Of a stretch of 32,000 bases of DNA, positions 8,601-31,282 are shown in pieces. Every line of letters starts with the position of its first letter. Position 1 is the first letter of the stretch. A program made the translations under genes and the position numbers. The notes beneath the pieces are model-generated. The model searched no databases. It saw only the letters and a program-made list of their open reading frames with translations, and was not told the origin of the DNA. Origin of the DNA: Geobacter sulfurreducens PCA (GTDB taxonomy: Bacteria; Desulfobacterota; Desulfuromonadia; Geobacterales; Geobacteraceae); contig NC_002939.5 in the NCBI RefSeq assembly GCF_000007985.2, positions 3,300,001 through 3,332,000 of the forward strand, in the 5' to 3' direction.

Positions 8601-9355
8601 CAGGAGGCGGTGGTCGCCGTCGTCTGCCAGGCGCCAAGCGCGTTTTTGGCAATCACGTCCACCGTGTGGGAGCCGGCGGCCAGCGCGGATAGGCTGATCT
8701 TCGTGGCAATTGGCGTTTCAGCCGACCAAGTGCCATTGTCGAGCCGGAATTTGTATGCAACGGCCGTAGCCCCCCCCACCGTGATGGCTGCGACCGTTGC
8801 CTTGGTCCTGGCGGCCGGCACACCTGTCAGCGCTGCCACGGGAGGAAGCTGGTAAACCAGGCTCTTCACTGCTTCCGCATTGCCGGCCTGATCCACGGCA
8901 AAAAACTTGAGTGTGGACGTGGGAGTCACCGTGATGGGCCCGCTGTACTGGGGCGAGGCGGTCGTCGGCGTTGTTCCATTGGTGGTGTAGTAAATGGTGG
9001 CGGTTTCACTGGAGGAAAGGGTCACGGTCTGGGCGGCGGCATAGGTCCCACCCGCCGGAGAGGCCGTCGTCACCGGCTTGATGGTGTCAACATCCCAGGA
9101 AACAGTGGTAGGCGAAGCCGTGGACTGCCAGTTTCCTGCGGCATCTTTGCCGACAACCGAAAGGGTATAGGAACCATTTACCAACCCCACGATATTCATG
9201 GAGGTCTTAACCGGGATCTCGGCCGACCAGGCACCGCTATTGATCTTGTACTTGTATGAAACGACGTCGCCGCCGTTCACGCCAAAGCCGAACGTGGTCG
9301 CCTTGGTCGGACCCGCCAGGGGGCTGTTGGCCACAACCACCGCCACCGGCGCAAC
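5621..9355 (-). repeat. In-frame tandem coding repeat of 7.5 units, 486-501 bp each (162-167 aa: Ig-like domain plus CHB_HEX_C-like domain)
   Basis: The conserved 24-mer encoding the (F/Y)FA(V/I)D block starts at 5921, 6416, 6908, 7406, 7907, 8393 and 8888. The spacings are 495, 492, 498, 501, 486 and 495 nt. The units are diverged at both protein and DNA level. Confidence 0.85.
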
Positions 9356-11098: not shown

Positions 11099-11203
11099 GA
11101 CAGTACCTCCATACATCTGAATGGCCCCGTCCCTGGGAAGTATGCTTGACAAACACTCCAGCGGGAGAATCGTTGTTTTCCCATTATTTACATATATCGG
11201 CAG

Positions 11204-11230
11204 GTACGGAGAAAACTTTACATCTATTCG
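11204..11230 (-). promoter_or_regulatory. Near-consensus sigma28 (FliA) promoter of the giant peptidase gene
   Basis: The minus strand reads TAAAGTTT (11230-11223), tctccgtacct (11 nt), then GCCGATAT (11211-11204), compared with TAAAGTTT-N11-GCCGATAA. It lies about 100 nt upstream of ATG 11098. Confidence 0.7.
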
Positions 11231-11300
11231 ATTCAACGAAATCGATATCGAGGAACTACTCCAAGCTATTTAGGTGAACGCGGAGGAACTGACTAACCAA

Positions 11301-11625: not shown

Positions 11626-11820
11626 ATGACCAATAATTTTGCCCTTATCGGCGCAGGTGGCTACATCGCACCCCGTCATCTCCAAGCAATCAGGGACACC
11701 GGCAACCGGCTCGTGGCGGCTCTCGAAAAGAGCGAATCTGTGAGAATTCTCGACCGACACTTCGACAATGTCTCGTTTTTCGTCGAGTTCGAGCGGTTCG
11801 ATCTCCACGCGGTCGCCTGA
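11626..11820 (+). pseudogene. Truncated N-terminal remnant (64 codons) of a Gfo/Idh/MocA NAD-dependent sugar oxidoreductase (WbpB-like)
   Basis: MTNNFALIGAGGYIAPRHLQAIRDTGNRLVAALEKSESVRILDRHFDNVSFFVEFERFD matches the Rossmann N-terminus of WbpB-type UDP-sugar 3-dehydrogenases, which are about 310-350 aa. The frame ends five codons after FERFD. The RBS GGAGA is intact. Confidence 0.65.
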
Positions 11821-11872
11821 CATCATTAGCGCGAAAACGAAAACTCCTTAAGTTTGCATGGAGGATATGTTC

Positions 11873-12631
11873 ATGGGTACATCAGGTATGCAATGCGAAA
11901 AGAAATTCCTGGATAAAGCATGCAGCACCTACAAAACTGCTGGCTCTTACCAGCAGCAGGCAATGAAGGACCTTATATTGCGGACTTTTTTGCCCTACAT
12001 GACAAACAATACAAAATCTGTATGTCTGTCTTTGGGATATGCTGAAGGGTATGAGGCTAAGATACTTTCCGAATGCGTGAAAGAACTTGATGTCATAGAA
12101 GGATCTCAGCAATTCTATGAACAAGGATTGGAAGACAACATCGCAAATGTTACACTCCACTATTCCTTATTTGAAGATTTTATACCTGAGAACAACAAAA
12201 AGTATGATTACATTTGTGCTAATTATGTGCTCGAACACGTTGAAAACGTTACCATTGTTCTGTCGTCTTTGAAAGAGATGCTTAAAGATGACGGATTGAT
12301 TTTTTCAGTTGTCCCCAATGCCCGAGCGTTTTCACGTCAACTTGCACTCCACATGGGCCTTATCGATGATCTTAAGGGCCTTACCGAAAACGACATCAAC
12401 CATGGACATAGGAGAGTGTACGATCGGGTAGCATTCAATCGCGATCTGGAAGGAGCCGGACTTTCAATAATCGCTCAAGGCGGTATAATGCTCAAACCCC
12501 TTGCGGATTTTCAGATGGACAAGCTCATTGATACTGGAATCCTCCAGACAGAACACCTCAACGGACTCTACAGGCTGGGAATGGAATATCCTGATTTTTG
12601 CAGTGCCTTATATGCCATTTGCAAAAAATAG
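11873..12631 (+). CDS. Class I SAM-dependent methyltransferase
   Basis: YDYICANYVLEHVENVTIVLSSLKEMLKDDGLIFSVVPN is a Methyltransf_11/23-like post-I/II region. The start is chosen at ATG 11873, 7 nt after GGAGGA; in-frame alternative ATGs are at 11858 and 11867. Confidence 0.75.
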   Translation: MGTSGMQCEKKFLDKACSTYKTAGSYQQQAMKDLILRTFLPYMTNNTKSVCLSLGYAEGYEAKILSECVKELDVIEGSQQFYEQGLEDNIANVTLHYSLFEDFIPENNKKYDYICANYVLEHVENVTIVLSSLKEMLKDDGLIFSVVPNARAFSRQLALHMGLIDDLKGLTENDINHGHRRVYDRVAFNRDLEGAGLSIIAQGGIMLKPLADFQMDKLIDTGILQTEHLNGLYRLGMEYPDFCSALYAICKK

Positions 12632-12671: not shown

Positions 12672-14630
12672 ATGAACAAGCGCAAGATCGATATGCTCAT
12701 GAAAGACTGCTATGAGCTGACTGTCACTGCCCTCACAATCAGAAAAGTTGAAGAACGTCTATTGGAGCTCTTTTCTGAAGGAGTACTCAACGGAACAATC
12801 CACACCTGTATCGGACAGGAGTGGACCGGAGTGGCGGTTGCAAACGCACTGCAAGCGGGAGATACAGTTTTCTCCAATCACCGCGGTCATGGACATTATA
12901 TTGCCCTGACTGGTGATGTTTATGGACTTATCGCAGAAATCATGGGCAAAGACGACGGTGTCTGCGGAGGCGTTGGAGGTAGCCAGCATCTACATACAGA
13001 AAACTTCTTCTCTAACGGGATTCAAGGCGGAATGGTGCCGGTCGCGGCTGGAAGAGCCTTGGCAAACGCGCTTCAAGGCAACAATGCAATTTCAGTGGTT
13101 TTTATCGGAGATGGAACTCTTGGAGAAGGTGTTATCTATGAAACGTTTAACATCGCATCCAAATGGCAGTTGCCACTGTTAGTTGTCCTGGAAAACAATC
13201 AGTACGCTCAGTCCACACCCACATCCCTGACATTGGCAGGCAATATACGGGACCGCGTACGTGGCTTCGGCATAGAATATATCAAGTGTGACACATGGGA
13301 CATCGCCGGGCTGCTTGACTCTGCAAAAGAGGCCGTTGATTGCGTACGCAAGAACCAAAAGCCTGTATTGCTCGAAATTGATACATACCGGCTGAAAGCC
13401 CACTCGAAGGGAGATGATCTTAGAGACCCTGTAGAGATCAGCCGCTACGCTGGGCAGGACAGCATAAATGCTCTACTGGAATCTGACGTTCCAAGAGTCG
13501 CTGAAACCGTCAATCAAATCGACAGCAATATCCAACAGGCAATCACCAAAGCCAGGGAAGCGACATTATGTTCTTTCGCTCCGGCATCGAACAGTGTTCG
13601 ACAGTATCAATCAGTTACGTGGAGAACTGAATCCTTTGCCAGACAAAGAATAATCACCTCAATCAATTTATCATTGCAATCGCTTCTGGAAAACAACTCT
13701 AAGGCAGTAATTATCGGGGAGGACATTGAAGCCCCCTACGGAGGAGCTTTCAAAGCCACAAAGGATCTGAGTACGTTGTTCCCGGGAAGAGTCAAGAACA
13801 CCCCCATCAGCGAGGGAGCGATTACAGGCGTAGGCATCGGTCTGGCACTGAGCGGATTTCTTCCCGTTGTGGAGATAATGTTCGGCGACTTCATGACTCT
13901 AACCTTTGACCAACTGCTTCAACACGCCGGTAAATTCTGTGAGATGTATGGCAAGGATCTCGACGTACCCTTGATCATTCGCACTCCCATGGGCGGACGT
14001 CGGGGTTATGGCCCAACACACAGCCAATCTTTGGAGAAATTTTTTCTCGGCATACCGAATCTGGAGGTCATTGCGTACAACCATAGAGTTTCTCCCGCCC
14101 TGATCTTTGGAAATCTGTGCAAGACGATCCGCAGGCCAACTCTCATCATCGAAAACAAGGTCCTCTATACTCAGCACGTAGACAGTACTCCCATGCCTGG
14201 ATTCCGCATCAATATTTCCGACGAACTATTCCCAACCGTCAGAATATCGCCAAGTACCGGAGATCCGCAAGTGACGCTTGTCTGTTACGGGGGAATGCTT
14301 GCGGAGGTTGAGATAGCCGCAGCCGCGGCTTTCGACGAAAACGAAATACTCTGCGAGATCATATGTCCGAGCATTATCAATCCTCTCAATGCATACCCCA
14401 TTCTTGAGTCGGCACGGAAAACCAGGAGGCTGATAACCGTAGAAGAAGGACCGAGCATAGCCGCCCTGGGCAGCGAGGTAGCCGCCCGAATACTTGAACA
14501 TTCGCTTCCCATTGCCCATTACAGTCGTATCGGTTACGACTCTACCATTCCATCATCAGCCAGCCGTGAATCCAGATTGATAACAAATGCCGAATCAATC
14601 TTTGAACGTATTGTGGAGATTTTCAAATGA
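12672..14630 (+). CDS. Single-chain TPP-dependent 2-oxoacid dehydrogenase E1 component (fused alpha and beta subunits)
   Basis: The alpha half has HTCIGQEW...NHRGHGHYIA and the TPP motif GDG (13107-13115)...ENN (13191-13199). The beta half has AVIIGEDIEAPYGGAFKATKDL...NTPISEGAITGVGIGLALSGFLPVVEIMFGDF. The start at ATG 12672 avoids overlap with the upstream gene. Confidence 0.85.
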   Translation: MNKRKIDMLMKDCYELTVTALTIRKVEERLLELFSEGVLNGTIHTCIGQEWTGVAVANALQAGDTVFSNHRGHGHYIALTGDVYGLIAEIMGKDDGVCGGVGGSQHLHTENFFSNGIQGGMVPVAAGRALANALQGNNAISVVFIGDGTLGEGVIYETFNIASKWQLPLLVVLENNQYAQSTPTSLTLAGNIRDRVRGFGIEYIKCDTWDIAGLLDSAKEAVDCVRKNQKPVLLEIDTYRLKAHSKGDDLRDPVEISRYAGQDSINALLESDVPRVAETVNQIDSNIQQAITKAREATLCSFAPASNSVRQYQSVTWRTESFARQRIITSINLSLQSLLENNSKAVIIGEDIEAPYGGAFKATKDLSTLFPGRVKNTPISEGAITGVGIGLALSGFLPVVEIMFGDFMTLTFDQLLQHAGKFCEMYGKDLDVPLIIRTPMGGRRGYGPTHSQSLEKFFLGIPNLEVIAYNHRVSPALIFGNLCKTIRRPTLIIENKVLYTQHVDSTPMPGFRINISDELFPTVRISPSTGDPQVTLVCYGGMLAEVEIAAAAAFDENEILCEIICPSIINPLNAYPILESARKTRRLITVEEGPSIAALGSEVAARILEHSLPIAHYSRIGYDSTIPSSASRESRLITNAESIFERIVEIFK

Positions 14631-15742
14631 TGAAAACAATGGACATAATCATTCCCAGAGAATTTGTCAGCGACGACCAGTACCTGCTCCAGAAACTCTG
14701 TGTCGTGAACAATGACTTTGTAAAAGAAGGAGAGATACTTGCCCTGATCGAATCATCAAAATCTGTCATTGACGTTACGAGTCCGGCTGATGGCTATGTC
14801 TATTTTTTCTCTGACGAAGGAGACATTGTGAGTGTCGGCGAGAGGTTGGCCTTGCTCGCATCAACCAAGGAGGCATTACAGGTTGAAATAGAGAATTCCA
14901 ACAAGAACTCTCAGCGTCGCAAGGAGAGTGAGACAAAGAGCGAGGACGTTTCATTGTCTGGCGTGAGGTGCTCCAAGAAGGCATTGCTTCTGATGAAACA
15001 GCACAATATCGATGTAGGAGCATTTGATGGTCTCGGGATGGTTACGGCGCAGGACGTAGAGCACTATCTCTCCAGCAGGGAAAAAGCCGTTAAAGCGACA
15101 GTAGCTCCATCTTCCGTAAATAGGCAGAAAATCATCATCCTTGGTGGCGGAGGACATTCAAAAGTATGCATAGACATACTGCGCCAGGCACAATCTTTCA
15201 CAATCGCAGGAATTCTCGACTCTATCCAGGACATTGGCGCAGAAGTGCTGGGAATCCCGGTCATTGGAAGAGACACAATGCCGGAACTACTCAAGACCAG
15301 AGAGAGTGGCATCTCCCTTGCGGTTAACGGGATTGGACTCATTCCGGATCACCGGAACAGATGCAAGCTTTTTGAGAGGCTATTGGAGGCCGGCTTTCAT
15401 CTCCCTAACCTCATACACCCCAAGGCATCAATCGAACCTTCGGCAAAACTCGGCGAAGGGAACCAGATCATGGCAGGAGCCATTATCGGGAGCGATGTCA
15501 CAGTAGGAAACTACTGTCTCATAAACTCGGGAGTCGTCGTCTCGCACGACTGTATCATCGACGACCACGTCCACCTGGCCCCCGGTGCGCTGCTTGCAGG
15601 AGCAGTCAGAGTTGGAAGAAACTCTTTGATCGGCATGGGCGTTACAATCTACGCAAAAGTAACAATAGGAAGCAACGTAGTTATAGCCAACGGCGCCAAC
15701 GTGTTTCACGATGTGCCGGACAACACCGTCGTCAAGATTTGA
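14627..15742 (+). CDS. Fusion protein: lipoyl-attachment domain, then peripheral-subunit-binding domain, then NeuD/PglD-family left-handed beta-helix sugar N-acyltransferase
   Basis: aa 5-80 carry GEILALIESSKSVIDVTSPADGYV, with the candidate lipoyl-Lys45 codon at 14759-14761. aa 112-148 read KKALLLMKQHNIDVGAFDGLGMVTAQDVEHYL. aa 167-371 carry KIIILGGGGHSKVCIDIL...IHPKASIEPSAKLGEGNQIMAGAIIGSDVTVGNYCLINSGVVVSHDCIIDDHVHLAPGA... hexapeptide repeats. There is an ATGA overlap with the E1 stop. Confidence 0.82.
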   Translation: MMKTMDIIIPREFVSDDQYLLQKLCVVNNDFVKEGEILALIESSKSVIDVTSPADGYVYFFSDEGDIVSVGERLALLASTKEALQVEIENSNKNSQRRKESETKSEDVSLSGVRCSKKALLLMKQHNIDVGAFDGLGMVTAQDVEHYLSSREKAVKATVAPSSVNRQKIIILGGGGHSKVCIDILRQAQSFTIAGILDSIQDIGAEVLGIPVIGRDTMPELLKTRESGISLAVNGIGLIPDHRNRCKLFERLLEAGFHLPNLIHPKASIEPSAKLGEGNQIMAGAIIGSDVTVGNYCLINSGVVVSHDCIIDDHVHLAPGALLAGAVRVGRNSLIGMGVTIYAKVTIGSNVVIANGANVFHDVPDNTVVKI

Positions 15743-15757
15743 CGTAATGGTTGCCAA

Positions 15758-16948
15758 ATGAATATGAACCCTAATGCAAGTTTCGACAATATGACTGAAT
15801 CCAGCGCCCCCCCTTCATTCAAGGAAAAACTCCACGTTGGGCGCCCCAATGTCGGCAATCGGGAAGCACTTCTTGCCCGCATCAACGACATGCTCGACCG
15901 CCGTTGGCTCACCAATAACGGTCCTTTTGTCCAAGAGCTCGAGCAAAAAATGAGTGAGTTTCTCGGCGTTCGAAACTGCATCGCCATGTGCAATGCAACC
16001 ATCGCCCTCGAGATCACCACCCGGGCACTCGGCATGAGCGGCGAGGTGATAGTGCCTCCGTTCACTTTCGTGGCGACCGCTCACGCTTTGCAATGGCAGG
16101 AGATAACCCCCGTATTCTGCGACATCGACCCGACGACCCACCATATCGATCCCAAGAAGATCGAATCAATGATCACGCCCCGCACAACCGGCATCGTCGG
16201 AGTTCATCTCTGGGGACGCCCTTGTGCAGTCAACACCCTTACGGAGATAGCAGCAAAACATAAGTTAAAACTTATCTTCGACGCGGCTCACGCTTTCGGC
16301 TGCTCGCACGGCGGCCGAATGATAGGCGGCTTCGGCGACGCAGAGGTGTTCAGCTTCCATGCCACCAAGTTCTTCAATACCTTCGAGGGGGGACTCGTCG
16401 CAACCGACAATGACGAGTTGGCCCAGAAGATCAGGCTCATGAAGAACTTCGGCTTCGAGGGTTACGACAACGTCATCTATATTGGCACCAACGGCAAAAT
16501 GACGGAGATCTGCGCGGCCATGGGGCTCACGAACCTTGAAAGCCTCGACGAGTTCATCCAGACCAACCACACCAACTATTACCGTTATCGTCAGGGGCTC
16601 TCCGGGCTGCCGGGCGTGTCGGTGATTGAGTACAACGAGGCCGAACGGAACAATTATCAATACGTGGTACTGGAGATCGACGAGAAGATGGCGGGAGTAT
16701 CCAGAGATCGTTTGGTAGAGGCACTCCATGCGAAAAACGTCATCGCCCGGAGGTATTTCTACCCAGGCTGCCACCGGATGGAACCGTATCGCTCGTACTT
16801 TCCACACTCACGGCTGCTCCTGCCGAAGACAGAAAGATTGGCGAGACGGGTCATGCTGCTGCCGACGGGCACGGCAGTCGAACTGGAGCATATTGATGCA
16901 ATCTGCGTTCTCATAAAACGAATCATCAACGGCTCCATACTCTCCTAG
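15758..16948 (+). CDS. DegT/DnrJ/EryC1/StrS-family PLP-dependent sugar aminotransferase
   Basis: NATIALEI, FDAAHAFG and FSFHATKFFNTFEGG (PLP lysine) motifs in a 396-aa protein. Sugar specificity cannot be determined by eye. Confidence 0.9.
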   Translation: MNMNPNASFDNMTESSAPPSFKEKLHVGRPNVGNREALLARINDMLDRRWLTNNGPFVQELEQKMSEFLGVRNCIAMCNATIALEITTRALGMSGEVIVPPFTFVATAHALQWQEITPVFCDIDPTTHHIDPKKIESMITPRTTGIVGVHLWGRPCAVNTLTEIAAKHKLKLIFDAAHAFGCSHGGRMIGGFGDAEVFSFHATKFFNTFEGGLVATDNDELAQKIRLMKNFGFEGYDNVIYIGTNGKMTEICAAMGLTNLESLDEFIQTNHTNYYRYRQGLSGLPGVSVIEYNEAERNNYQYVVLEIDEKMAGVSRDRLVEALHAKNVIARRYFYPGCHRMEPYRSYFPHSRLLLPKTERLARRVMLLPTGTAVELEHIDAICVLIKRIINGSILS

Positions 16949-16972: not shown

Positions 16973-19900
16973 ATGATCTGTCACATTGCTTTCGAAAGCG
17001 ACTACTCTTTCGCGCTACACAACCTGCTCTTGAAACACTTCGATATCAACGAGCATATTTTTCTGATATGCGGCAGAGCCTCATGGGATTCGACGAAACA
17101 ATTTCAATACAGAAACAGCGTTAAGGTCGCAGACCTGAACTCTCAGGAAGTCCGGCGACTCCTCTGCGAGTCGGAACAGATTATTATTCATGGCTTATTT
17201 TTCGGGGAAGTGGTCGACTACTTTCACCGCAACCAGGATCTTCTGCCCAAGACCAGTTGGAAGCTCTGGGGCGGCGACCTTTACTGTTACAGGAATGCAG
17301 GAACGACAGACTTTCCTGCTGAATATGAGGAGAAAAGGAGACAGGTCATCCGGAACTTCGGTCGGATAATCTGTGTCTTAGAGGAGGATTATCAACTCGC
17401 CCGACAGGTATACGACACCAAGGCCACCCGTGCACATGGGTTCTACCCGTTGCTGCTCAATTACGACTACCTTGATTCGCTACGAAAACCTCGCGCTCCG
17501 TCGGAGATAATCACCGTTCAAGTCGGCAACTCTGCAACACGCGAAAACTGCCACGAAGAAGCATTCGAACACCTCATCCATCTCGACAACGACAACATGA
17601 GAGTCTGCTGTCCCCTCTCCTACGGTGACAAATCCTATGGCAACGAGATTATTCGGTTGGGGATGAAACTGTTCGGAAGTCGGTTCTGCCCCCTGACCGA
17701 TGTTCTCCCATTCAAGGAGTATTCCGACCACCTCAGCTCAGTTGATGTCGCCGTTATGAACCACAACCGTCAGCAAGGGCTCGGCAACACAGTAGCGTTG
17801 TTGTATCTCGGCAGGAAAGTATATATGCGGCATGACACGACGTCCTACAGTTGGCTGATGAAACACGGAATCACCGTCTACGATATGCGGAATTTGGGGC
17901 ATGCTTCATTTGCCGAGTTTTCGCATATTGAAGAGGATGTGGCGGCGCGAAACACAGAGATCATCGGCAGGGAATTCTCGGACGATGCATGCGTAAAGCT
18001 ATGGAAGTCAATTTTCAGCTCAAAGGGAAGACAATCTAAGATGACGGTACCGAATGAGAAGGGTTCACTAATTCAAAAACTCAAGCACCAATATTTCCCC
18101 GGCTCCAACTTCGTAGGCCCTTACGAGCAAAACGGCCACGCCCCATCCATCTATGAAGAGCAGTGGCTGTGGGCACATCGCCATCTGATCAAAGGAACCG
18201 TCCTTGACATGTCCACACCCCGTTATTGGCACGAATTCATTCATACCATGGAATCGGTTTCTCGTGTCGTCATCAGCGAGATGGGATGCGACACCGTAAC
18301 CAAATACGGCAAGAGCTCATCGGTAGACATAGTAGCCGATTTCTGCGATCCGAATCTGCCAGTGGCTCCGGAAACGTTCGACACCATCCTCTGCCTGAGC
18401 ATCCTGGAACACTGCACCAATCCCTTGTCCATGGTAAATAATCTTTACAAGTTACTCCGCCCCGGAGGCACCGTTTTCTTCTGGGCACCCTTCGCCTACA
18501 TCGATGGGCACCTTGAGCCTGACTATTGGCGTTTCGGGCGTGACGGCTTCCGTCTTCTGGTCAAACAGGCTGGGTTTGAAATCATGGAAGAAGGAAACTT
18601 CGGGGACCTCGGAAAATATTTCCTCCAAGAATTTGGATTTGATGCATCAGCACGGAACGGTCATCGTGGTGTGCCCTGCGCCAACTGGATTATCTGCAAA
18701 AAACCGCAGGATACCAGGACCCTCCCCAAGCCTACACATGGGATCTCGACGAGCGCGGGGAACTCACCCCTCCGCCTTTACGCCGGCGACATCCCCAACC
18801 GCCCCGAGTACGAAGGCTGGCTCGGCCTCTCGCTAACCCAGGAAAACGACCGCCATATCCGGCACGACATCACCCGACCCCTTCCCTTCGCCGACAACTC
18901 GGTGGACGCTTTCCAGGCTGAAGATGTGCTGGAGCATATCGCCTATGACCGGATCGTCCCCGTTCTTAACGAAATCCATCGTGTACTCAAACCGGGCGCA
19001 GTGTTCCGGCTCTCCGTCCCCGACTATCGTTGCGATATCCTTGACGCCAGAACGGAAAAGGACGCAACGGGAGCGCCCGTCTTCGATCCCGGCGGAGGAG
19101 GTACCAGAGAAAATCCGGGGCACGCCTGGTTCCCCCGCTACGAGACGGTTAAGACCCTGGTCGAAAAATCTAATTTTGGAACAGCGGGAGAAATTTCATT
19201 CCTTCACTACTACGACGAGCATAACCTTCCGGCGATGCGGGAGATCGACTATGCGAAGGGATTTATTCAGAGGCCCCCGGACCACGACCCGCGGGTGCAA
19301 ACACCCTACCGTCCGATGTCTCTAGTCGTAGACCTGACAAAAAGAGACGTAAGAATATTTTCTTCATTCAACAACTCCGCATCTCACGCGAATACGAATG
19401 TTGGCGGCACCGATGCTCACTCCATCGCCGAAACCGCAAGCCGAATATTGCAGGCGGGTGAAAAGCTCTATTCTGAAGGATACACCGCAGATGCAGAGGG
19501 ATGCTTCAACGCTCTCCTCGTCATGCAAGAGCCGCTTGCCACCGCCCACAACAATCTTGGCGTAATCCACCAGGGCCGCCATGAACTCGATAACGCTCTT
19601 GAACACTTCAGATCAGCACTGGCCCTCATGCCGTCACATCGGGAGGCACGTGAAAACATCAAAGCCACCCTTTCATCTGAAAGCATCTATCCCTATGAGG
19701 GGAATCGGTCCAGATCCAATCATTACAATGAAGACTACTTCAATTGGCAAAAGAACATCGGTGCGTTCGGCGGAAGAGCCAACCTCTTTAAGTTCAGCGA
19801 ATTCATAACACCTTCCGACACTATACTCGACTTCGGCTGCGGAGAAGGATATCTCCTCTCAAACATCACCTGTGCAAGGAAGATCGGAGTAGAACTGAAC

Positions 19901-20347
19901 GAAGCAGCCCGAAGAACCGCATGGGCACAGGGGGTAGAAGCATTCGCGTCTCCGGAGGAGATCCCCTTTGGAACTGCAGACCTGGTGATCTCCAACCACG
20001 CGCTGGAACATGTGCTGTCACCGCTCGAAACGCTCCAAGCCCTGATCAAGACGCTCAAGCCGGGGGGGATGACCGTTTTTGTCGTCCCCCACCAGGATAC
20101 ACGGGAAGAATACAATCCCGACGACATCAACATGCACCTCTACACCTGGAACCAGTTGACGCTGGGCAATCTGTTCCGGCAGGCAGGATTCTCTGTTGAA
20201 CGCGTCGAGGCGATCCAGCACCAATGGCCGCCCAATTTCGCAGAGGTCTATGCCCAGGTCGGCGAAGCGGAATTTCACCGGATATGCCGGCAAACGGCTA
20301 TTCAGAACAATAATTACCAGATTCGGATAGTTGCCCGCAGAAAGTGA
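16973..20347 (+). CDS. Multidomain protein: WecF-like (GT56, 4-alpha-L-fucosyltransferase family) glycosyltransferase, two divergent class I methyltransferase-like modules, TPR and one canonical class I methyltransferase
   Basis: aa 1-350: IIHGLFF, WKLWGGDLY (17258-17284), VQVGNSATRENCHEEAF and NHNRQQGLGNTVALLYLG resemble E. coli WecF blocks. aa 400-545: FDTILCLSILEHCTNP..LLRPGGTVFF. aa 600-760: PLPFADNSVDAFQAEDVLEHI..VLKPGAVFRLSVPDY. aa 825-900: TPR-like. aa 915-1090: ILDFGCGEG (19823-19849)...LKPGGMTVFVVP. Confidence 0.72.
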   Translation: MICHIAFESDYSFALHNLLLKHFDINEHIFLICGRASWDSTKQFQYRNSVKVADLNSQEVRRLLCESEQIIIHGLFFGEVVDYFHRNQDLLPKTSWKLWGGDLYCYRNAGTTDFPAEYEEKRRQVIRNFGRIICVLEEDYQLARQVYDTKATRAHGFYPLLLNYDYLDSLRKPRAPSEIITVQVGNSATRENCHEEAFEHLIHLDNDNMRVCCPLSYGDKSYGNEIIRLGMKLFGSRFCPLTDVLPFKEYSDHLSSVDVAVMNHNRQQGLGNTVALLYLGRKVYMRHDTTSYSWLMKHGITVYDMRNLGHASFAEFSHIEEDVAARNTEIIGREFSDDACVKLWKSIFSSKGRQSKMTVPNEKGSLIQKLKHQYFPGSNFVGPYEQNGHAPSIYEEQWLWAHRHLIKGTVLDMSTPRYWHEFIHTMESVSRVVISEMGCDTVTKYGKSSSVDIVADFCDPNLPVAPETFDTILCLSILEHCTNPLSMVNNLYKLLRPGGTVFFWAPFAYIDGHLEPDYWRFGRDGFRLLVKQAGFEIMEEGNFGDLGKYFLQEFGFDASARNGHRGVPCANWIICKKPQDTRTLPKPTHGISTSAGNSPLRLYAGDIPNRPEYEGWLGLSLTQENDRHIRHDITRPLPFADNSVDAFQAEDVLEHIAYDRIVPVLNEIHRVLKPGAVFRLSVPDYRCDILDARTEKDATGAPVFDPGGGGTRENPGHAWFPRYETVKTLVEKSNFGTAGEISFLHYYDEHNLPAMREIDYAKGFIQRPPDHDPRVQTPYRPMSLVVDLTKRDVRIFSSFNNSASHANTNVGGTDAHSIAETASRILQAGEKLYSEGYTADAEGCFNALLVMQEPLATAHNNLGVIHQGRHELDNALEHFRSALALMPSHREARENIKATLSSESIYPYEGNRSRSNHYNEDYFNWQKNIGAFGGRANLFKFSEFITPSDTILDFGCGEGYLLSNITCARKIGVELNEAARRTAWAQGVEAFASPEEIPFGTADLVISNHALEHVLSPLETLQALIKTLKPGGMTVFVVPHQDTREEYNPDDINMHLYTWNQLTLGNLFRQAGFSVERVEAIQHQWPPNFAEVYAQVGEAEFHRICRQTAIQNNNYQIRIVARRK

Positions 20348-23300
20348 GCATAACGCCAATGAATACCACGCCCGTCATTCTTGTTTGCTACAATAGGCCG
20401 CACCACACGGCGGAGATGCTCAAGGCCCTTGAGGTCCACAATATCCAGAACCTGATCATTTTCGCCGATGCACCCAAATCGGACAAGGACGTGGAGGGAG
20501 TTCGCGCAACAAGGAAACTGCTCGAAGGCATCCGGTGGACCCACCCCGAAATCGTATTCCAGACAGAAAACCAAGGGCTCGCAAAATCAATCGTTTCGTC
20601 TGCGAATTATGCTTTTTCACTACATGACCGGCTGGTCCTGCTTGAAGATGATTGCGTACCCCAACGCCACTTCTTCGACTTCATGTCAAACTGCCTGGAC
20701 AGGTACGAAGAAAATGAGAAGATTTTCGGCATCAGCGGATACACGGTTCCGATCCCGTCCAGACTGCAGGAGCAACACCCCTATGACCTCTATTTCTATC
20801 CTCGCATTGGCAGTTGGGGATGGGGAACGTGGAAACGGGCATGGCAACATTACGACACCGATCTCGTAAAGCTTTGCCGGAAAGCTCTGGAATCAAACAT
20901 CGACTTAACGCAAGGAGGTGTTGATATCCCGGTCAACATTGAGGGACTTCTTCGCGGGACATTGAAGGATGTGTGGACCCTGAACTGGGTTCTCACCGTA
21001 TATCTCAACAAGGGCTATTACATCTACCCCACCAAGTCCCACATCAACAACATAGGATTCGATGGCACCGGTGTCCACTGCGGAAAATCCGACCTTTTCC
21101 AAACCATTCTTGCCGATTCACCCGCAATTCGGTTCCCGTCGGATGTGGTCCTGAACTATGACCTTATCAGTCATTACAATATGTATTTCGGAGGTCCTGT
21201 TGTAACTCCGCCCCCAAGGGAACCTGCCGGCTTGAACGCCGTTCCCGAGGCTGCATCCAGAAAGGCTCCGCTGAACGTTGCTCTCCTTTCCACCATGGAC
21301 TTCGGTGGTGCCGGCAAAGCAACCCATCGTCTCCTCAGGGGTCTTCAGGCGTACGGCAGCGACGCACTGATGGCTGTGCTATGTAAAAGCACAGAAGATC
21401 CATCCATAAAGCTGTTGAGCAATTCTGCCGGAGGTTTGACGACTGTCTCAGCCGAAGGTGCAGGACGATGGGAAGAACTCTTCCGGAAGTGGCGCGGACA
21501 GTTGGCAGGCTATACAAACCGGCCGGAAGGACTTGAAATTTTTACCGACTCCCGTTCCCGGTTCTCCCTGGAGGATATCCCCGAACTCCAGAGAGCCGAC
21601 ATACTCAACTTTCACTGGATGGCCGGACTGCTCAACTATCCGACGTCTTCCTCGGCCCTGAAGGGAAAAAAAATCGTCTGGACCCTCCACGACATGAATC
21701 CCTTCACCGGCGGCTGCCACTATGCCGGCGAGTGCACCGGATATCTCCGCTCATGCGGTACGTGTCCCCAACTCGGTTCCAGTGACAAAGAAGATCTTTC
21801 ACGAAAAATTTGGGAAGACAAACGGGCCGCGTACGCCGACCTGGACCTGACTATCGTAACCCCGAGTCGCTGGCTGGCTGAATGCGCCCGCAACAGCTCG
21901 CTCCTTTCCCGCTTCCCGGTCCACGTCATACCCAACGGACTCCCCACGGACATTTTCCGCCCACATCCGAAGGACGAGCTCCGCCGGTCGTTCAACATCC
22001 CCGAACACGCCCGGGTGATATTGTTCGGTGCCGATTATGATACCCGTCGCAAAGGTTTCCACTATCTTGTAGATGCCCTGAGAGCTCTTCCCGACAAGCG
22101 CAACCTGGTGCTCGCGTCATTCGGGCCTCTCCCGGAGACCAAGTTCAGCAGCGAATTCCTCACGATGAACTTCGGTTCGATCTCCAATGAGACTCGCCTA
22201 GCCCAAATCTACAGCCTTGCCGATCTCTTTGTCCTACCGTCAATGGAGGACAACCTCCCGAACACAGTCATTGAGTCGATGGCCTGCGGAATACCGGTGG
22301 TCGGCTTCAAGATCGGGGGCATGCCCGACATGATCGAACACAAGGTGAACGGCTACCTGGCTCAACCAGGGGATGTCACAGGGCTCACTGAGGGAATCCG
22401 TTGGTGCCTCGCAAATGCATCAGCACTCAAACTTGGCGAACGGTGCAGGGAGAAGGTTGAGCTGGAGTATTCCCAGCGGGTTCAGGCTGAGAGCTATACC
22501 AACCTCTATGAGAACATACTCCTAGGGAAAAGTGCCGTCAAATCTTTGGCAGCACCTGCCTGTTCGGCGGACTCGATCCTCATCGCCGCCAACCTGGTCC
22601 CCTTCCGGGACGCGGGGCAGCGGCAACGGCAGGATACCGGCATAGCTAGCATCACCGCCCTTGTAGCGAAGGGCATCATTCCCCTCAACATCTGCTACCC
22701 GGACGAACTCCTAGAGCCGGCCGACTGGCAGACAGCAACAATGCTCGAGCGCAGCGCGAACGTAGAACTGAAGATCGACGGCAAGCGCAAGCCGTTCGTC
22801 ATCGACCTCTTCGATATCGCCGCCCAGTGGGCAACAGCCCACGGAATTACGTGGTTCGCCATCACCAACAGCGATATCGTCCTGACAGACGCGCTCATCG
22901 CCGAGTTGCGGCGCCTTCAAGCCGACGGCATCGAAACGGTTGCCATCTCACGCAACGAGGTGGAACGGGTGGAGGGGGACGGCAGGCTCGTCCCTGGCTA
23001 CCTGGAGGTGAACGGCTACGATATCTTCCTCTGCAGGAGCTCCTGGTGGCAGTCGAACCGTCACCGCTTCCAGCCATATATCTACGGCGAACGGGCCTGG
23101 GACGACGCCTACGCGGCCATCATGGCATGCCACTCTCGCTTCGCCATGCTCTACCAGGACGGCCTCTGCTTCCACTTCAAGCACCCGACCAGCTGGATCT
23201 CCGGCCCATACTCCGACTACAACATGGGGCTCTATACCGGCATCGACAAACCTTACAGCGACCGATACGAGGCGTTCATTAAGGAGGTGCTTGCCCTGAC

Positions 23301-26300
23301 CAAGGCACAGCTCACCCCAGCGAAGACCGCCGAACTGGTGGCGAAGCATTTTTCACCGCCCCCCCCCGTGCCGGTGAACTCCTCTCAGGGCTTCGTCAAC
23401 ATCGGCATGATCACCTACAACCGCCTTGATTTCACGAAACTCTGCCTGGAGGCGTTCGAGCGGACCGTCGACTATCCTCACCGGCTTACCGTCATCGACA
23501 ACAACAGCCAGGACGGGACCGTGGAGTTCCTGCGGAAGCTGCAAGCCCAGGGCGTCATCCACAACCTGATCCTCTTGAACGAAAACGTTGGGGTGGCCAA
23601 GGCGTCGAACCTCGCCTGGGCAATGGAGCCCGATGCCCCGTACTACATGAAGCTCGACAATGACATCGTCTTCCAGAAAATGGGGTGGCTCTCCCGACTG
23701 GTGGAGGTGATTGAAAGGGTGCCGCAGATCGGGGCGGCGGGTTACAACTTCGAGCCCGTCAGCTATCCCCTCTACGAGCTGAACGGCTGCCAGGTCAGGA
23801 TCAAGGAACCGGGGAATCTGGGGGGGGCATGCATCCTGATCCCGAAGCGGACCGAACGGCTCCTCGGCAACTGGTGCGAGGATTATGGCCTTTACGGTGA
23901 GGAGGACGCCGATTATGGCTTCCGGATCCGCTGCGCCGGTCTTCTCAACGCCTACATGGAGGACGAGGAGATTGGCTTCCACCTTCCTGCGGGCAAAGCG
24001 GCGACCATCGACAGTGCAACCCTGGTGGCCCTTGACGGGCAGGAGGAGGACCTCCACGCAGACTACCGCAAGTGGAAGGACGAACTGCGTCGCAAAAACG
24101 TACACGGTCCTTTCAAGCGAAACTTGGAGCGTTATGCTCACGACCCGACTTCACTCTTCCAGCAATCGCGCTTTGCCACAGAGTGGTTGCGGACTCACCG
24201 ACCGGACATTGACGTTTCGCCACTGAAAACAACGGGGGGCAAGCTCACCATCACCCTGCTTTCCCTCGACCTTCCCTCCCATGCCTGCATGCAGCTCAGG
24301 ATCACCGGCCCCGCAAGCGCCTTCTCTGATGAGGTGGAGCTGCTTCAAGCCGTTACCAATGACGGGACAAAGTATCTCATCAACTCCGACTCCATAGACC
24401 GGGCCGACCTGATCATCGTCCAGCGGTTCTTCCCTCGGCCAGAAACAGAGCGTCATCTGCAGAAGGCCCTGGCGTCGGGCAAACCGATCATCTACGAGTT
24501 TGACGACCTCCTGACCGACCATTCTCCGGACAATCCGCACCGGGAATTGAGCACCCTCTGTGCTCCTTTCGTTTCCGCACTTCTTGCCAAGGCAGACGGG
24601 GTAACGGTATCCACCGACCTTCTCGCCAGTGCTCTTCTCCCAAGAAAGGGAACAGTCCATGTTCTGCCGAACCTCCTTGACGAGAAGCTCTGGGCCGCTC
24701 CGCCGGCGTCACGCCCGACCGGCGCTCCGGTAATTATTGGCTATGCCGGTACACCAGGGCATGAGGCGGACCTGGCGCCGATCGAGGAGGCGCTGGAGCG
24801 CATCGCCCGAATGTACGGACACCGGGTAGCGTTCCGCTTTTTCGGCTGCGCCACCGAGCGTATCAGGAAACTTCCTGGCTATACCTTCATACCCTTCACA
24901 GGCAATTACTCTGAATACGCAGCCACCTTGCAAAATTCCGGCATCGACATCGGCCTCGTCCCCCTGGAGGACAACCGCTTCAACCGCTGCAAGAGCAACA
25001 TCAAGTGGCTCGAATACTCGGCCTGCGGCATAGCCGGCATCTACGCCGACCTCCCCCCCTACCGCTCGTGCGTGAAGGAAGGGGAAACGGGGCTCCTGAT
25101 AGCTGGCTACGACGTGGACGCCTGGGTGGCGGCCATCGAAAGCCTCATCGACAACCCGGCCCGCCGCCATGCCATGGCCCTGGCGGCCCGCACCGAGGTC
25201 CTCGCCAACTACACCCTCAAGAGCCGCGGCCACCTTTTCCTCGACACTTGGCGCCGGATCGCCGGCCGTGCCGATACCACAGCCAAGGAGCAGCAGATGC
25301 CCATCTCACCGCAACCGTTCGCGCCGGTCGCCGCAGCCACTGGCTCAGACGCCCCGAAGGTATCCATCATCGTCCCCCTCTACAACAAGGCGGAGTACAC
25401 CAAGCAGTGCCTGGAGGCCCTGGCCCTCAATACGGAGCAGGCCCTGAACTACGAGGTCATCCTCGTGGACAACGCTTCGAGCGACGGCACCGCCGAGTAC
25501 CTGCGCACCCTTTCGGGGGACGTGACCATCGTGACCAACCTGAAGAACCTGGGCTTTGCCAAGGCGTGCAACCAAGGGGGGCGGATCGCCCGGGGGCGGT
25601 ACCTGGTTTTCCTGAACAACGACACCATCCCCCATCCGGGGTGGCTCGACGGGCTCATCAAGGGCGCGGAGCAGGACGGCGCCGACATCGTGGGGGCCAG
25701 GCTCCTCTACCCCAACGGCCGGGTCCAGCACGCCGGGGTGGCCTTCAACGAGCAGTCCATCGGCTACCACATCTTCAACGGCTTCCCGGCAGACTCGCCG
25801 GCCGTCAACCGCAAGCGGTTCATGCAGTGCGTGACCGCCGCCTGCATGCTGGTGAAACAGGAGCTCTTCGCGGAGCTCGGCGGCTTTGACGAGGGGTACG
25901 TGAACGGCTTCGAGGATGTGGATTTCTGCCTCCGGGCCGGGGAGCGGGGCCGCCGCATCCTCTACACCCCCGAAAGCGTTTTGATCCACTTCGAGGAGAC
26001 CAGCGAGGGTCGCAAGGACCACGACACCCCCAACATCCGCCGCTTCCTGGCCCGCTGGGAAGGGAAGGTCCGCTGCGATCATCAGGATATCTACCGTTCC
26101 GAGGGGTACCGGGCCGAACGGCAGGCCGACGGCAGGCTGCGCATCTACCAGGCAGACGTGGCGCCCGTGTCGTCAGCTCCGACGGCTCCGCAGCAGGTCA
26201 CGCCGACACCGGGCACCGGGGCTGCGGCGGCAACGCCGTCCGTTTCGGGGCGGGAAAAGGCCCTTGCCCTGAAGGCGGAAGGACGGTACGTGGAGGCCAT

Positions 26301-27549
26301 CGAGCATCTGGTCAAAATTGTGACAGCGGGTGACAACTCCGTGCTCGTCGATCTCGGCGACTGCCTGGCGAGCCTGGAGAAATACGACGACGCCCTGGCC
26401 CTTTACGAGGAAAGCCTTGCCCTGTGCCCCACCAACGGGCGGGCGCTGGTGGGGGTCGGTGTTGTCAGATATATGACACGACGGATCGCCGAGGCGGCCG
26501 ACGCCTTCAGCCGGGCACTGGAAACCGACCCTGCCGACCCGAAGGCCCTTTGCGGCCTGGGCATGGCCCGCTGCGCCCAGGGACGGAACGCGGAAGGGTT
26601 CGAGCTCTACGGCCGGGCGCTTGAGGCCGAGCCGGAGAACCTGACCGCAGTGCACGAATCGGTGAGGCTTGCCTATGAGCTGGGACGCTTCAGCGAGGCG
26701 GCCAAGCGACTTGAGTCATACCTGCGCCATCATCCGGGCGACATCGACATCCTCTTTGCCAGTGCCGGACTCCTTCACATGGCCGGCAGGAACGCCGAGG
26801 CCCGTGACGCCCTGGAGCGGCTGCTGGTGTTCTCCCCCGATTACAGCGGGGCCATGGAGTTGCTGGCGAAGCTGGAGGAGCAGGACCAAGAGCCGGGTGA
26901 AAGAGCCACGGAAGCTGAAGCCCGCAGGCTCAAGGAAGACGGGAAGTACGAGGAGGCCCTGACGGCCTTCTCCCGGGTCGCAGAGGCCGGCGATTCATCG
27001 GCCCTGGCCGACATGGGGGACTGCCTTGCCCAGCTGGGACGGCTCGACGAGGCGGCCGCCCGTTACCTGGAAGCCCTGGATGCCGACGGAGCAAACCTCA
27101 AAGCCCTGGTGGGGCTCGGAGTGGTATCGCTGGTCCAGGGGAAACAGGTGAAGGCGGTCACTTGGTTCAACAGGGCCCTCAAGGCGGACCCCGCCAACGC
27201 AAAGGCTCTCTGCGGGCTCGGGATGGTCCGGAACATGCAAAACAAGCATGACGAGGCGTTCAGCCTCCTTGCCCGGGCCGTTGATGCGGACCCCGAGGGC
27301 CTCACGGCCCTTCACGAACTGATCCGGCTCTCCTATGCCACCGGCCGGTTCGATGAAGCGGGAGAACGGCTCGACCGGTACCTGATGCACCACCCCGCAG
27401 ACCTGGACATGGTCTTCGCCCAGGCAGGCATCCGCTTCAAGGCGGGCCGCTATGCCGAGGCCCTGTCGAGCATCGAGACGGTGCTCCTCTTTGCCTCCGA
27501 CTACGAAGGGGGGCTGGAATTGCGGGAAGCGATCACCCAAGCCATGTAG
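20344..27549 (+). CDS. 2401-aa multi-glycosyltransferase protein: GT-A, GT4/GT-B, an unassigned domain, GT2, a GT-B-like domain and GT2, followed by a Pro/Thr linker and a duplicated TPR array
   Basis: D1, aa 8-280: VILVCYNRP...LLEDDC (EDD at 20644-20652). D2, aa 308-725: LPSMEDNLPNTVIESMACGIPVVG. D3, aa 740-1000: unassigned. D4, aa 1016-1260: ITYNRLDF..VIDNNSQDGT..KLDNDIVF (23656-23664)..GEEDADYGFR. D5, aa 1298-1640: IGYAGTPGH...KSNIKWLEYSACGIAGI. D6, aa 1672-1910: VSIIVPLYNKAEYT..LVDNASSDGT..FLNND (25615-25623)..GFEDVDFCLR. TPRs span aa 1970-2400. The GTG start at 20344 overlaps the upstream stop (GTGA); an alternative ATG is at 20359. Confidence 0.8.
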   Translation: MSITPMNTTPVILVCYNRPHHTAEMLKALEVHNIQNLIIFADAPKSDKDVEGVRATRKLLEGIRWTHPEIVFQTENQGLAKSIVSSANYAFSLHDRLVLLEDDCVPQRHFFDFMSNCLDRYEENEKIFGISGYTVPIPSRLQEQHPYDLYFYPRIGSWGWGTWKRAWQHYDTDLVKLCRKALESNIDLTQGGVDIPVNIEGLLRGTLKDVWTLNWVLTVYLNKGYYIYPTKSHINNIGFDGTGVHCGKSDLFQTILADSPAIRFPSDVVLNYDLISHYNMYFGGPVVTPPPREPAGLNAVPEAASRKAPLNVALLSTMDFGGAGKATHRLLRGLQAYGSDALMAVLCKSTEDPSIKLLSNSAGGLTTVSAEGAGRWEELFRKWRGQLAGYTNRPEGLEIFTDSRSRFSLEDIPELQRADILNFHWMAGLLNYPTSSSALKGKKIVWTLHDMNPFTGGCHYAGECTGYLRSCGTCPQLGSSDKEDLSRKIWEDKRAAYADLDLTIVTPSRWLAECARNSSLLSRFPVHVIPNGLPTDIFRPHPKDELRRSFNIPEHARVILFGADYDTRRKGFHYLVDALRALPDKRNLVLASFGPLPETKFSSEFLTMNFGSISNETRLAQIYSLADLFVLPSMEDNLPNTVIESMACGIPVVGFKIGGMPDMIEHKVNGYLAQPGDVTGLTEGIRWCLANASALKLGERCREKVELEYSQRVQAESYTNLYENILLGKSAVKSLAAPACSADSILIAANLVPFRDAGQRQRQDTGIASITALVAKGIIPLNICYPDELLEPADWQTATMLERSANVELKIDGKRKPFVIDLFDIAAQWATAHGITWFAITNSDIVLTDALIAELRRLQADGIETVAISRNEVERVEGDGRLVPGYLEVNGYDIFLCRSSWWQSNRHRFQPYIYGERAWDDAYAAIMACHSRFAMLYQDGLCFHFKHPTSWISGPYSDYNMGLYTGIDKPYSDRYEAFIKEVLALTKAQLTPAKTAELVAKHFSPPPPVPVNSSQGFVNIGMITYNRLDFTKLCLEAFERTVDYPHRLTVIDNNSQDGTVEFLRKLQAQGVIHNLILLNENVGVAKASNLAWAMEPDAPYYMKLDNDIVFQKMGWLSRLVEVIERVPQIGAAGYNFEPVSYPLYELNGCQVRIKEPGNLGGACILIPKRTERLLGNWCEDYGLYGEEDADYGFRIRCAGLLNAYMEDEEIGFHLPAGKAATIDSATLVALDGQEEDLHADYRKWKDELRRKNVHGPFKRNLERYAHDPTSLFQQSRFATEWLRTHRPDIDVSPLKTTGGKLTITLLSLDLPSHACMQLRITGPASAFSDEVELLQAVTNDGTKYLINSDSIDRADLIIVQRFFPRPETERHLQKALASGKPIIYEFDDLLTDHSPDNPHRELSTLCAPFVSALLAKADGVTVSTDLLASALLPRKGTVHVLPNLLDEKLWAAPPASRPTGAPVIIGYAGTPGHEADLAPIEEALERIARMYGHRVAFRFFGCATERIRKLPGYTFIPFTGNYSEYAATLQNSGIDIGLVPLEDNRFNRCKSNIKWLEYSACGIAGIYADLPPYRSCVKEGETGLLIAGYDVDAWVAAIESLIDNPARRHAMALAARTEVLANYTLKSRGHLFLDTWRRIAGRADTTAKEQQMPISPQPFAPVAAATGSDAPKVSIIVPLYNKAEYTKQCLEALALNTEQALNYEVILVDNASSDGTAEYLRTLSGDVTIVTNLKNLGFAKACNQGGRIARGRYLVFLNNDTIPHPGWLDGLIKGAEQDGADIVGARLLYPNGRVQHAGVAFNEQSIGYHIFNGFPADSPAVNRKRFMQCVTAACMLVKQELFAELGGFDEGYVNGFEDVDFCLRAGERGRRILYTPESVLIHFEETSEGRKDHDTPNIRRFLARWEGKVRCDHQDIYRSEGYRAERQADGRLRIYQADVAPVSSAPTAPQQVTPTPGTGAAAATPSVSGREKALALKAEGRYVEAIEHLVKIVTAGDNSVLVDLGDCLASLEKYDDALALYEESLALCPTNGRALVGVGVVRYMTRRIAEAADAFSRALETDPADPKALCGLGMARCAQGRNAEGFELYGRALEAEPENLTAVHESVRLAYELGRFSEAAKRLESYLRHHPGDIDILFASAGLLHMAGRNAEARDALERLLVFSPDYSGAMELLAKLEEQDQEPGERATEAEARRLKEDGKYEEALTAFSRVAEAGDSSALADMGDCLAQLGRLDEAAARYLEALDADGANLKALVGLGVVSLVQGKQVKAVTWFNRALKADPANAKALCGLGMVRNMQNKHDEAFSLLARAVDADPEGLTALHELIRLSYATGRFDEAGERLDRYLMHHPADLDMVFAQAGIRFKAGRYAEALSSIETVLLFASDYEGGLELREAITQAM
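26251..27543 (+). repeat. Internal duplication of a TPR module of about 210 aa (two copies offset by about 220 aa / 660 nt)
   Basis: The block KAEGRYVEAIEHL..LVDLGDCLASL..ALVGVGVV..DPADPKALCGLGMAR..RLESYLRHHPGDIDILFASAG..FSPDYSGAMELL aligns colinearly with KEDGKYEEALTAF..LADMGDCLAQL..ALVGLGVV..DPANAKALCGLGMVR..RLDRYLMHHPADLDMVFAQAG..FASDYEGGLELR. Confidence 0.7.
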
Positions 27550-31262: not shown

Positions 31263-31282
31263 CAGGAAAGGTCAGGCGACGT

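Follow-up and report, generated by a model that had tools for sequence, protein, structure and literature searches.

In the 32,000-nucleotide stretch of Geobacter sulfurreducens PCA contig NC_002939.5 that we analysed (positions 3,300,001 to 3,332,000 of the forward strand; hereafter the window), one gene at 16973..20347 (+) specifies a 1124-aa protein in which a WecF-like glycosyltransferase domain of family GT56 is joined to two methyltransferase-fold modules (M1 and M2), a pair of tetratricopeptide repeats (TPRs) and a third, canonical methyltransferase (M3). On balance we lean towards the view that this protein is a soluble, multifunctional glycan-building enzyme that attaches a sugar resembling N-acyl-viosamine and methylates it, with flagellin as a possible target. 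No characterisation of a GT56 domain fused to three methyltransferase-fold modules was found, and a literature search on WecF or GT56 together with methyltransferases returned nothing relevant. What is unusual about the protein is the fusion; its parts are otherwise ordinary.

An intact GT56 fusion

The gene appeared in the open reading frame (ORF) listing of the window as a single, uninterrupted frame, complete from its ATG start through 1124 codons to its stop. A weak AGGA lies approximately 13 nt 5' of the ATG, and the stop codon shares bases with the GTG that starts the following gene (20344..27549). An earlier reading of this DNA, made without database searches (hereafter the sequence-only reading), had described one 1124-aa fusion of glycosyltransferase, methyltransferase modules and TPRs, and all of the motifs it quoted were found in the translation: WKLWGGDLY (aa 96-104), VGNSATRENCHEE (aa 184-196), NRQQGLGNT (aa 265-273), VLDMSTPRYW (aa 410-419), LRLYAGD (aa 600-606) and ILDFGCGEG (aa 951-959). 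It had also raised the concern that resequencing might split the frame by frameshifts. The fusion is borne out by the intact frame and by the domain matches given below, and the concern is not: an identical 1124-aa product is present in 117 blocks of the assembly collection, the translation matched the query exactly at the four places inspected, including the complete genome CP078092.1 and the metagenome-assembled contig DPAK01000009.1, and the DNA of the window is 100% identical to the loci of those assemblies, these two included. CP078092 is the accession given for G. sulfurreducens PCA in PMC10868280. Identical protein and DNA in independent assemblies exclude a frameshift or an assembly artefact.

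We nevertheless considered whether the long ORF could be a pseudo-fusion of four adjacent genes, created by sequencing error or lost stop codons. Such an origin would fit the sizes of the four units, which match those of stand-alone genes, and the existence of a 481-aa gene call (P0078) that is 100% identical to aa 644-1124 only, on one 11.6-kb contig. It is contradicted by the identity among assemblies, and by a protein 54% identical to ours over aa 1-794 (P0001) that keeps the order GT56-M1-M2 in one ORF. We regard a pseudo-fusion as extremely improbable and effectively refuted. The short gene call P0078 may reflect truncation at the contig end or an alternative start.

The GT56 domain occupies aa 1-355 (16973..18037, +). 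The NCBIfam model NF002756, one of the WecF models, aligned with it over its full length (aa 2-350 onto profile positions 6-350 of 351; E 1.6e-90), and Pfam PF07429 (Glyco_transf_56) scored 58.5 bits on the whole protein and 61.9 bits on aa 1-360, well over its cut-off of 25. These matches agree with the resemblance to WecF that the sequence-only reading had noted in aa 1-350. The NF002756 score of 303.7 bits falls below the cut-off of that model (457), and the other WecF models in NCBIfam gave 30-57 bits vs cut-offs of 470-754, so that all six WecF equivalog cut-offs were missed. The context of WecF proper is likewise absent, as neither genes for enterobacterial common antigen (ECA; wecA-G, wzxE, wzyE) nor a WecE-type aminotransferase were detected in the window. 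By its profile matches, then, the 1124-aa protein is a member of GT56 but not a WecF equivalog, on grounds of both score and context. Residues W96, W99, G100, D102, S187, R266 and Q268 are invariant in an alignment of 17 members of the GT56 subfamily, and the three sequence blocks that had been quoted from this domain hold these residues. A sequence search of the PDB found no solved structure of a GT56 relative; its only match was at chance level (E 0.72).

At the other end of the protein, M3 (aa 926-1124; 19748..20344, +) carries the canonical motif I ILDFGCGEG and matched Methyltransf_23 (E 8.7e-19, profile positions 16-162 of 164) as well as Methyltransf_11 and Methyltransf_25, both from profile position 1. 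In the alignment of the M3 family, G30, G32 and G34 are invariant and the column of query residue E49 is Glu in 11 of the 13 members, so that the profile matches of this module include both the GxGxG of motif I and the acidic residue at the end of beta2. It is preceded by two TPRs at aa ~824-889 (19442..19639, +), matched by TPR_2 and TPR_1 over aa 856-889 and by TPR_16 over aa 832-885. The Pfam matches thus support the TPR pair and the canonical third module of the sequence-only reading. Some stand-alone proteins of the M3 family of approximately 300 aa (P0145, P0154, P0169) have an N-terminal extension at the position equivalent to the TPRs.

M1 and M2, methyltransferase folds with an unusual motif I

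Three separate stretches of the protein matched Methyltransf_11, _23 or _25 in Pfam, and two of them lie between the GT56 domain and the TPRs. In M1 (aa ~365-580; 18065..18712, +) the sequence VLDMSTP (aa 410-416) replaces the hhDhGxGxG of motif I, while in M2 (aa ~597-790; 18761..19342, +) only LYAG (aa 602-605) is left of motif I and Ser620 stands at the acidic position of beta2. The Pfam matches to these two modules were partial (Methyltransf_11/23, with Methyltransf_11 for M2) and confined to the beta3-beta5 part, and single-sequence and profile searches of the PDB similarly gave only partial beta3-beta5 matches to generic methyltransferases. No specific Pfam or NCBIfam model matched either region. 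Motif I was therefore beyond the reach of the PDB sequence matches, and was judged instead by AlphaFold2 modelling, Foldseek and hhalign.

AlphaFold2 models built on 33-sequence alignments had pLDDT values of 92.5 for M1 and 93.9 for M2. When compared with the PDB by Foldseek, each model retrieved class I methyltransferases and SpnF (4pne), a cyclase that itself has the methyltransferase fold, at a probability of 1.0, with TM values of ~0.5-0.58 for M1 and TMq values of ~0.45-0.52 for M2; helices A to C, part of the canonical fold, are missing from the M2 model. Both modules are thus predicted to adopt the class I methyltransferase fold. This is consistent with the claim of the sequence-only reading that they are methyltransferase-like but lack GxGxG, and disposes of its proviso that they might prove to be unrelated folds. 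By hhalign, the DMST-P of M1 falls on the DFGCGGG of motif I in the M3 family. The GLSL of M2 falls on NVDF and GIEI, with Ser620 aligned to the Asp or Glu of canonical relatives, so that a Ser would take the place of the ribose-binding acidic residue. In M1 the Asp of motif I and that of beta3 are retained, and beta2 still ends in an acidic residue or Asn; M2 retains the first Gly of motif I and the beta3 His-Asp. In comparison with generic class I methyltransferases (Methyltransf_11/23/25; 2p8j, 6f5z, 3l8d, NNMT and UbiG), the likeness extends to the fold of M1, M2 and M3, to an hhLEH motif after beta4 and to the 'LKPGG' region of beta5. In contrast, M1 and M2 are without GxGxG, and M2 is also without the beta2 acid and helices A to C.

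These departures are not idiosyncrasies of one protein. In the M1 family (33 sequences; mean column identity 48%) M53 and S54 never vary and D52 and P56 hardly do, and in the M2 family (33 sequences; mean column identity 38%) G15 of the YAG and about 35 other, mostly polar, positions are invariant. A profile search with M1 and M2 together found 212 proteins at E<=1e-8, many of them stand-alone proteins of approximately 235-260 aa. From these alignments M1 and M2 are two separate, widespread and conserved families, each with its odd motif I fixed throughout. The sequence-only reading had suggested that the two modules might be degenerate scaffolds. We rejected the interpretation of decayed relics because the odd motif I is fixed family-wide and stand-alone members exist. 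We conclude instead that they are functional units with a class I methyltransferase fold, for which binding of S-adenosylmethionine (SAM) is putative.

Related architectures and the surrounding gene cassette

A set of 1.84 billion representative proteins, searched exhaustively with HMMER, yielded 1153 matches at E<=1e-30, and 259 collected proteins were sorted into architecture classes. Stand-alone proteins were frequent among these 259 (GT56, 44; M1, 35; M2, 41; M3, 13), and fusions of GT56 to M1 or M2 modules recur in other lineages. P0001 adds GT2 and GT9 domains to its GT56-M1-M2 array, P0002 has GT56-M1 with GT2 and TPR, and P0029 and P0040 are GT56-M2 fusions. P0004, from Ignavibacteriaceae (locus L007, 10001-13801), combines GT56, TPR, M2, an unnamed domain of ~300 aa and a methyltransferase of the LNLGCG type. 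We also found an M1-M2-M3 fusion (P0017), DegT-M2 fusions (P0056, P0064 and P0088), M2-M3 proteins, and M1-M2 with radical-SAM or other glycosyltransferase domains. No other protein among the 259 has the full five-part arrangement GT56-M1-M2-TPR-M3. Judged from these sequences, the 1124-aa protein is one outcome of a mix-and-match domain set, in which the fused units GT56, M1, M2 and TPR-M3 correspond in size to four stand-alone genes.

The genomic distribution of GT56 gave a similar picture. For the genome scan the 17-sequence GT56 alignment was too diverse, and a 5-sequence alignment yielded 80 species-representative loci; no G. sulfurreducens record was among them, although both search patterns match the window exactly, either because the representative genome is without this cassette or because it is masked. 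An ORF of ~350 aa was present in ~68 of the 80 loci and a fusion in ~10. The statement of the sequence-only reading that GT56 proteins normally stand alone at about 350 aa therefore holds as a majority rule, and fails for the fused minority. In 65 of the 80 loci a gene of the DegT aminotransferase family is found no more than 6 kb away. Every related GT56 fusion examined, and an M1-M2 gene, in unrelated lineages, also had such a gene upstream, either adjacent or a few genes away. The genes for N-acylation vary between those loci and include WbqC, an acyl carrier protein (ACP) with ligase and reductase, and a formyltransferase.

The G. sulfurreducens gene conforms to this pattern. Directly upstream is a DegT-family aminotransferase (15764..16948, +; PF01041, E 9.5e-110) for which the best model was DesI (TIGR04427; E 6e-154, 512.8 bits), the C4 aminotransferase of dTDP-4-keto-6-deoxyglucose; the two WecE-type models scored 133.8 and 162.0 bits. 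It is preceded by a lipoyl domain fused to a sugar N-acyltransferase of the NeuD/PglB/VioB family (14627..15742, +), with TIGR03570 at 194.5 bits, over the cut-off of 160.8, and PF00364 over aa 23-76. Further upstream are a thiamine pyrophosphate enzyme resembling pyruvate dehydrogenase E1 with its alpha and beta parts fused (12672..14630, +; PF00676, PF02779, PF02780, TIGR03182 and NF006667), which is the presumed source of the acyl group, and, as the first gene of the cassette, a 257-aa methyltransferase (11858-12631, +; Methyltransf_23, E 5e-22). With M1, M2 and M3 the latter brings the island to four methyltransferase-fold units. The E1 and lipoyl-VioB proteins together suggest that the N-acyl group comes from a 2-oxo acid via acyl-lipoamide, and not from acyl-CoA. 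The lipoyl-VioB fusion gave 491 matches at E<=1e-20 in many phyla; among the matches listed, most have PF00364 and are annotated only as 'NeuD/PglB/VioB family sugar acetyltransferase'. No literature on lipoyl-linked sugar N-acetyltransferases was found.

The DesI-like and VioB-family neighbours and the synteny with DegT sustain the proposal, also made in the sequence-only reading, that the GT56 protein belongs with the upstream amino-sugar genes. For the type of sugar that reading had relied, with reserve, on the likeness to WecF, which transfers Fuc4NAc. Because the aminotransferase is DesI/VioA-like and not WecE-like, a viosamine-type sugar is more likely than Fuc4NAc. A hint of a 3-amino uronic pathway had been drawn from a WbpB-like remnant. 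The fragment itself is present, as a 64-aa ORF at 11626-11820 (+; MTNNFALIGAGGYIAPRHLQAIRD...) that by eye resembles the N-terminal Rossmann part of a sugar dehydrogenase of the WbpB/GFO_IDH_MocA type; it is probably what is left of the N-terminus of such an enzyme at the cassette's edge, and is uninformative about the sugar.

Downstream, the overlapping gene (20344..27549, +) encodes a 2401-aa multi-glycosyltransferase with GT4, two GT2 and Glyco_trans_1_2 domains in Pfam and a TPR tail. Its aa 7-294, a region without a Pfam match, are 57% identical to aa 700-994 of P0004, which is the unnamed domain of that protein. This shared region provides a Rosetta-stone link between the 1124-aa gene and the adjacent 2401-aa gene. 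There follow a 638-aa Glyco_trans_1_2 protein, a GT9-like protein and then flbD, motA and motB, which start ~65 bp past the GT9 gene, the last of the cluster (window ~30984-32000, +; locus L008, 11620-13493). The motA gene extends past the end of the window, where the ORF listing holds only a shadow ORF (31259-31987, -) without a Pfam match.

The cassette is variable between strains. A block from ~11.3 to 24.9 kb has a GC content of 44-60% vs ~65% in its flanks. In strain CP072789.1 other genes replace the cassette, and DNA homology, at 97%, resumes only at 24938, inside the 2401-aa gene. This gene is a mosaic: the DNA for its C-terminal ~870 aa is 97% identical to CP072789.1, and its N-terminal ~1530 aa lie in the low-GC variable cassette. 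The counterpart of the variable part in CP072789.1 is a 2482-aa protein with GT2, B12-binding and radical-SAM domains. Within the cluster (~11.3-31 kb) no families of transporters, ATP-binding cassette (ABC) transporters, Wzx flippases, Wzy, Wzz or priming phosphoglycosyltransferases were detected, and in a crude hydrophobicity scan most island products were without a clear membrane-spanning segment. The cassette is thus placed as a flagellin-glycosylation island would be: beside flagellar genes, variable among strains and with no export machinery detected.

Proposed function and competing explanations

In the pathway that we propose, dTDP-4-keto-6-deoxyglucose from RmlA and RmlB (encoded elsewhere in the genome) would be aminated at C4 by the adjacent DesI/VioA-like enzyme, and the amine would be acylated by the lipoyl-VioB protein with an acyl group generated by the adjacent E1. 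The GT56 domain would then move the resulting N-acyl-4-amino-4,6-dideoxyhexose, of the viosamine type, onto a glycan assembled by the giant glycosyltransferases encoded next to it. Methylation of that sugar or its neighbours would be the task of M3 and probably also of M1 and M2, and the TPR pair may contact a partner protein. Neither a flippase nor a polymerase, ABC transporter or priming transferase is encoded in the island, which makes a cytoplasmic protein-linked glycan, with flagellin as the leading candidate, a more likely acceptor than the lipid II of ECA. The absent export genes, the TPR content and the flagellar neighbourhood all favour a cytoplasmic protein glycan. A link to flagella is also seen in 5 of the 80 GT56 loci, which have a flagellin gene at a distance of 6 kb or less.

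Several observations weigh against this proposal. The GT56 domain falls short of every WecF equivalog cut-off, so that profile scores assign neither donor nor acceptor, and the DesI score of 512.8 bits is below its own cut-off of 650. M1 is without the glycine loop and M2 without the second glycine and the beta2 acid, and either may not bind SAM. No flagellin gene is present in the window or within 10 kb downstream. The other 75 of the 80 GT56 loci, mostly with stand-alone GT56, have no flagellin gene at that distance of 6 kb. The last gene of the cluster is a GT9 (heptosyltransferase-like) gene, which could point to lipopolysaccharide (LPS), and the E1 and GT9 proteins had borderline hydrophobic maxima (1.83 and 1.91, respectively) in the crude scan. 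No biochemical or glycan-structure data from Geobacter, for flagellin glycosylation or for a Fuc4NAc transferase, were found in the literature.

A serious rival, which we consider unlikely without dismissing it, is that the protein works as WecF does, on a lipid-linked polysaccharide such as an O-antigen, an exopolysaccharide or an ECA-like polymer. GT56 would add the amino sugar to an oligosaccharide linked to undecaprenyl-PP, and the methyltransferase modules would cap or terminate the chain, as WbdD or WsaE do. The only characterised member of GT56, WecF of the enterobacterial common antigen pathway, does act on lipid II, and multi-domain enzymes that combine glycosyltransferase with methyltransferase are characteristic of those O-antigen and S-layer glycan pathways that depend on ABC transporters; the GT9 gene at the end of the cluster and the scarcity of flagellin genes near related GT56 loci lend weight on the same side. 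It is opposed by the lack of detectable priming, flipping, polymerising and export genes in the cluster and by the flbD-motAB genes that adjoin it. In addition, TPR-bearing glycosyltransferases are commoner in protein glycosylation, and the LPS of G. sulfurreducens is reportedly rough. In our judgement a lipid-linked acceptor is no more likely than a protein glycan, which may be carried by flagellin.

There is a somewhat greater chance, still short of an even one, that M1, M2 or both are not methyltransferases at all. Their Rossmann-like fold would then serve to bind a nucleotide sugar or acceptor, act as a scaffold, or support a reaction other than methyl transfer as in SpnF, with methylation left to M3 and the separate 257-aa methyltransferase at 11858-12631. 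The family-wide replacement of the motif I glycines (S-T-P in M1, A-G-x-h in M2), the Ser in place of the beta2 acid and the missing helices A to C in M2, the confinement of the Pfam and PDB sequence matches to beta3-beta5, and the presence of SpnF among the structural matches would all be explained. Against this, all of the other top structural neighbours bind SAM or S-adenosylhomocysteine, M1 keeps the two Asp residues and the acidic or Asn residue of beta2 noted above and M2 its Gly and His-Asp, and so many polar residues are strongly conserved that catalysis is a better explanation than a scaffold. A more specific form of the idea, to which we give a rather small chance, is that M1 ('VLDMSTP') and M2 ('LYAG') have abandoned the canonical SAM loop and carry out a non-canonical reaction on N-acyl-4-amino-4,6-dideoxyhexoses. 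They may act without SAM or transfer some group other than methyl, with either the nucleotide sugar or the already transferred sugar as substrate. If so, the covalent coupling of M1 and M2 to GT56 and DegT would point to a kind of tailoring not recognised before in the biosynthesis of bacterial protein glycans.

The proposed transfer and methylation of an N-acyl-viosamine-like sugar can be set beside three known systems. WecF (RffT; TDP-Fuc4NAc:lipid II Fuc4NAc transferase, GT56) is homologous to aa 1-355 over their full length, with the WxxWGGD, GNS and RQQ blocks conserved, and the gene pairing recurs, a sugar aminotransferase of the DegT family accompanying GT56 here as wecE accompanies wecF. 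Unlike WecF, the protein here is below the equivalog cut-offs, has ~770 extra fused residues and no ECA locus, has a DesI/VioA-like rather than a WecE-like aminotransferase beside it, and probably uses an acceptor other than lipid II. WsaE (Geobacillus S-layer glycan) and WbdD (the chain terminator of E. coli O8/O9a) are also multi-domain glycan enzymes in which a single polypeptide combines a methyltransferase with domains for glycan assembly, and the non-reducing end is capped by methylation. The joining of glycosyltransferase and methyltransferase is thus an already known theme. Those proteins differ in having GT2/GT4 or kinase domains and not GT56, a single canonical methyltransferase each, and lipid-linked polymers exported by ABC transporters as substrates.

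The viosamine island of Pseudomonas syringae offers the closest functional parallel. Its flagellin glycan is capped by a 2-O-methyl N-(3-hydroxybutanoyl)-viosamine, Qui4N(3-hydroxybutanoyl)2Me, made by vioA, vioB, vioT and vioM, of which VioT is a 1173-aa transferase and VioM a methyltransferase (PMC3927599). Both islands have a C4 aminotransferase, a VioB-family N-acyltransferase, a large transferase and a methyltransferase, and both are strain-variable. By analogy, the product here may resemble the terminal methylated N-acyl-4-amino-4,6-dideoxyglucose of that flagellin. In P. syringae the transferase and methyltransferase are encoded by separate genes, whereas here they are fused, and the acyl group comes from ACP-linked enzymes of the fatty-acid type instead of an E1/lipoyl system. 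VioT and VioM are likened to our protein by description, as functional analogues only.

These results extend known themes and do not overturn current understanding. The recurrent combinations of GT56, DegT, M1, M2 and M3 suggest that GT56 enzymes are general transferases for 4-amino-4,6-dideoxyhexoses, beyond WecF, a role that would reach large cytoplasmic glycosylation islands, some of them beside flagellin genes. By association, the fusions also offer a lead on M1 and M2, two large methyltransferase-like families that lack annotation, and the E1/lipoyl-VioB pair hints at sugar N-acylation that is independent of CoA. As G. sulfurreducens is genetically tractable, it could serve to identify the target glycan; strain PCA is reportedly non-motile.

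Directly upstream of the cassette, 5621-11236 (-) encodes a 1871-aa protein with seven CHB_HEX_C_1/Fn3_assoc repeat pairs. Its N-terminal region contains HETGHALGLPD, which by eye is zinc-protease-like. This protein is a possible alternative target of glycosylation.

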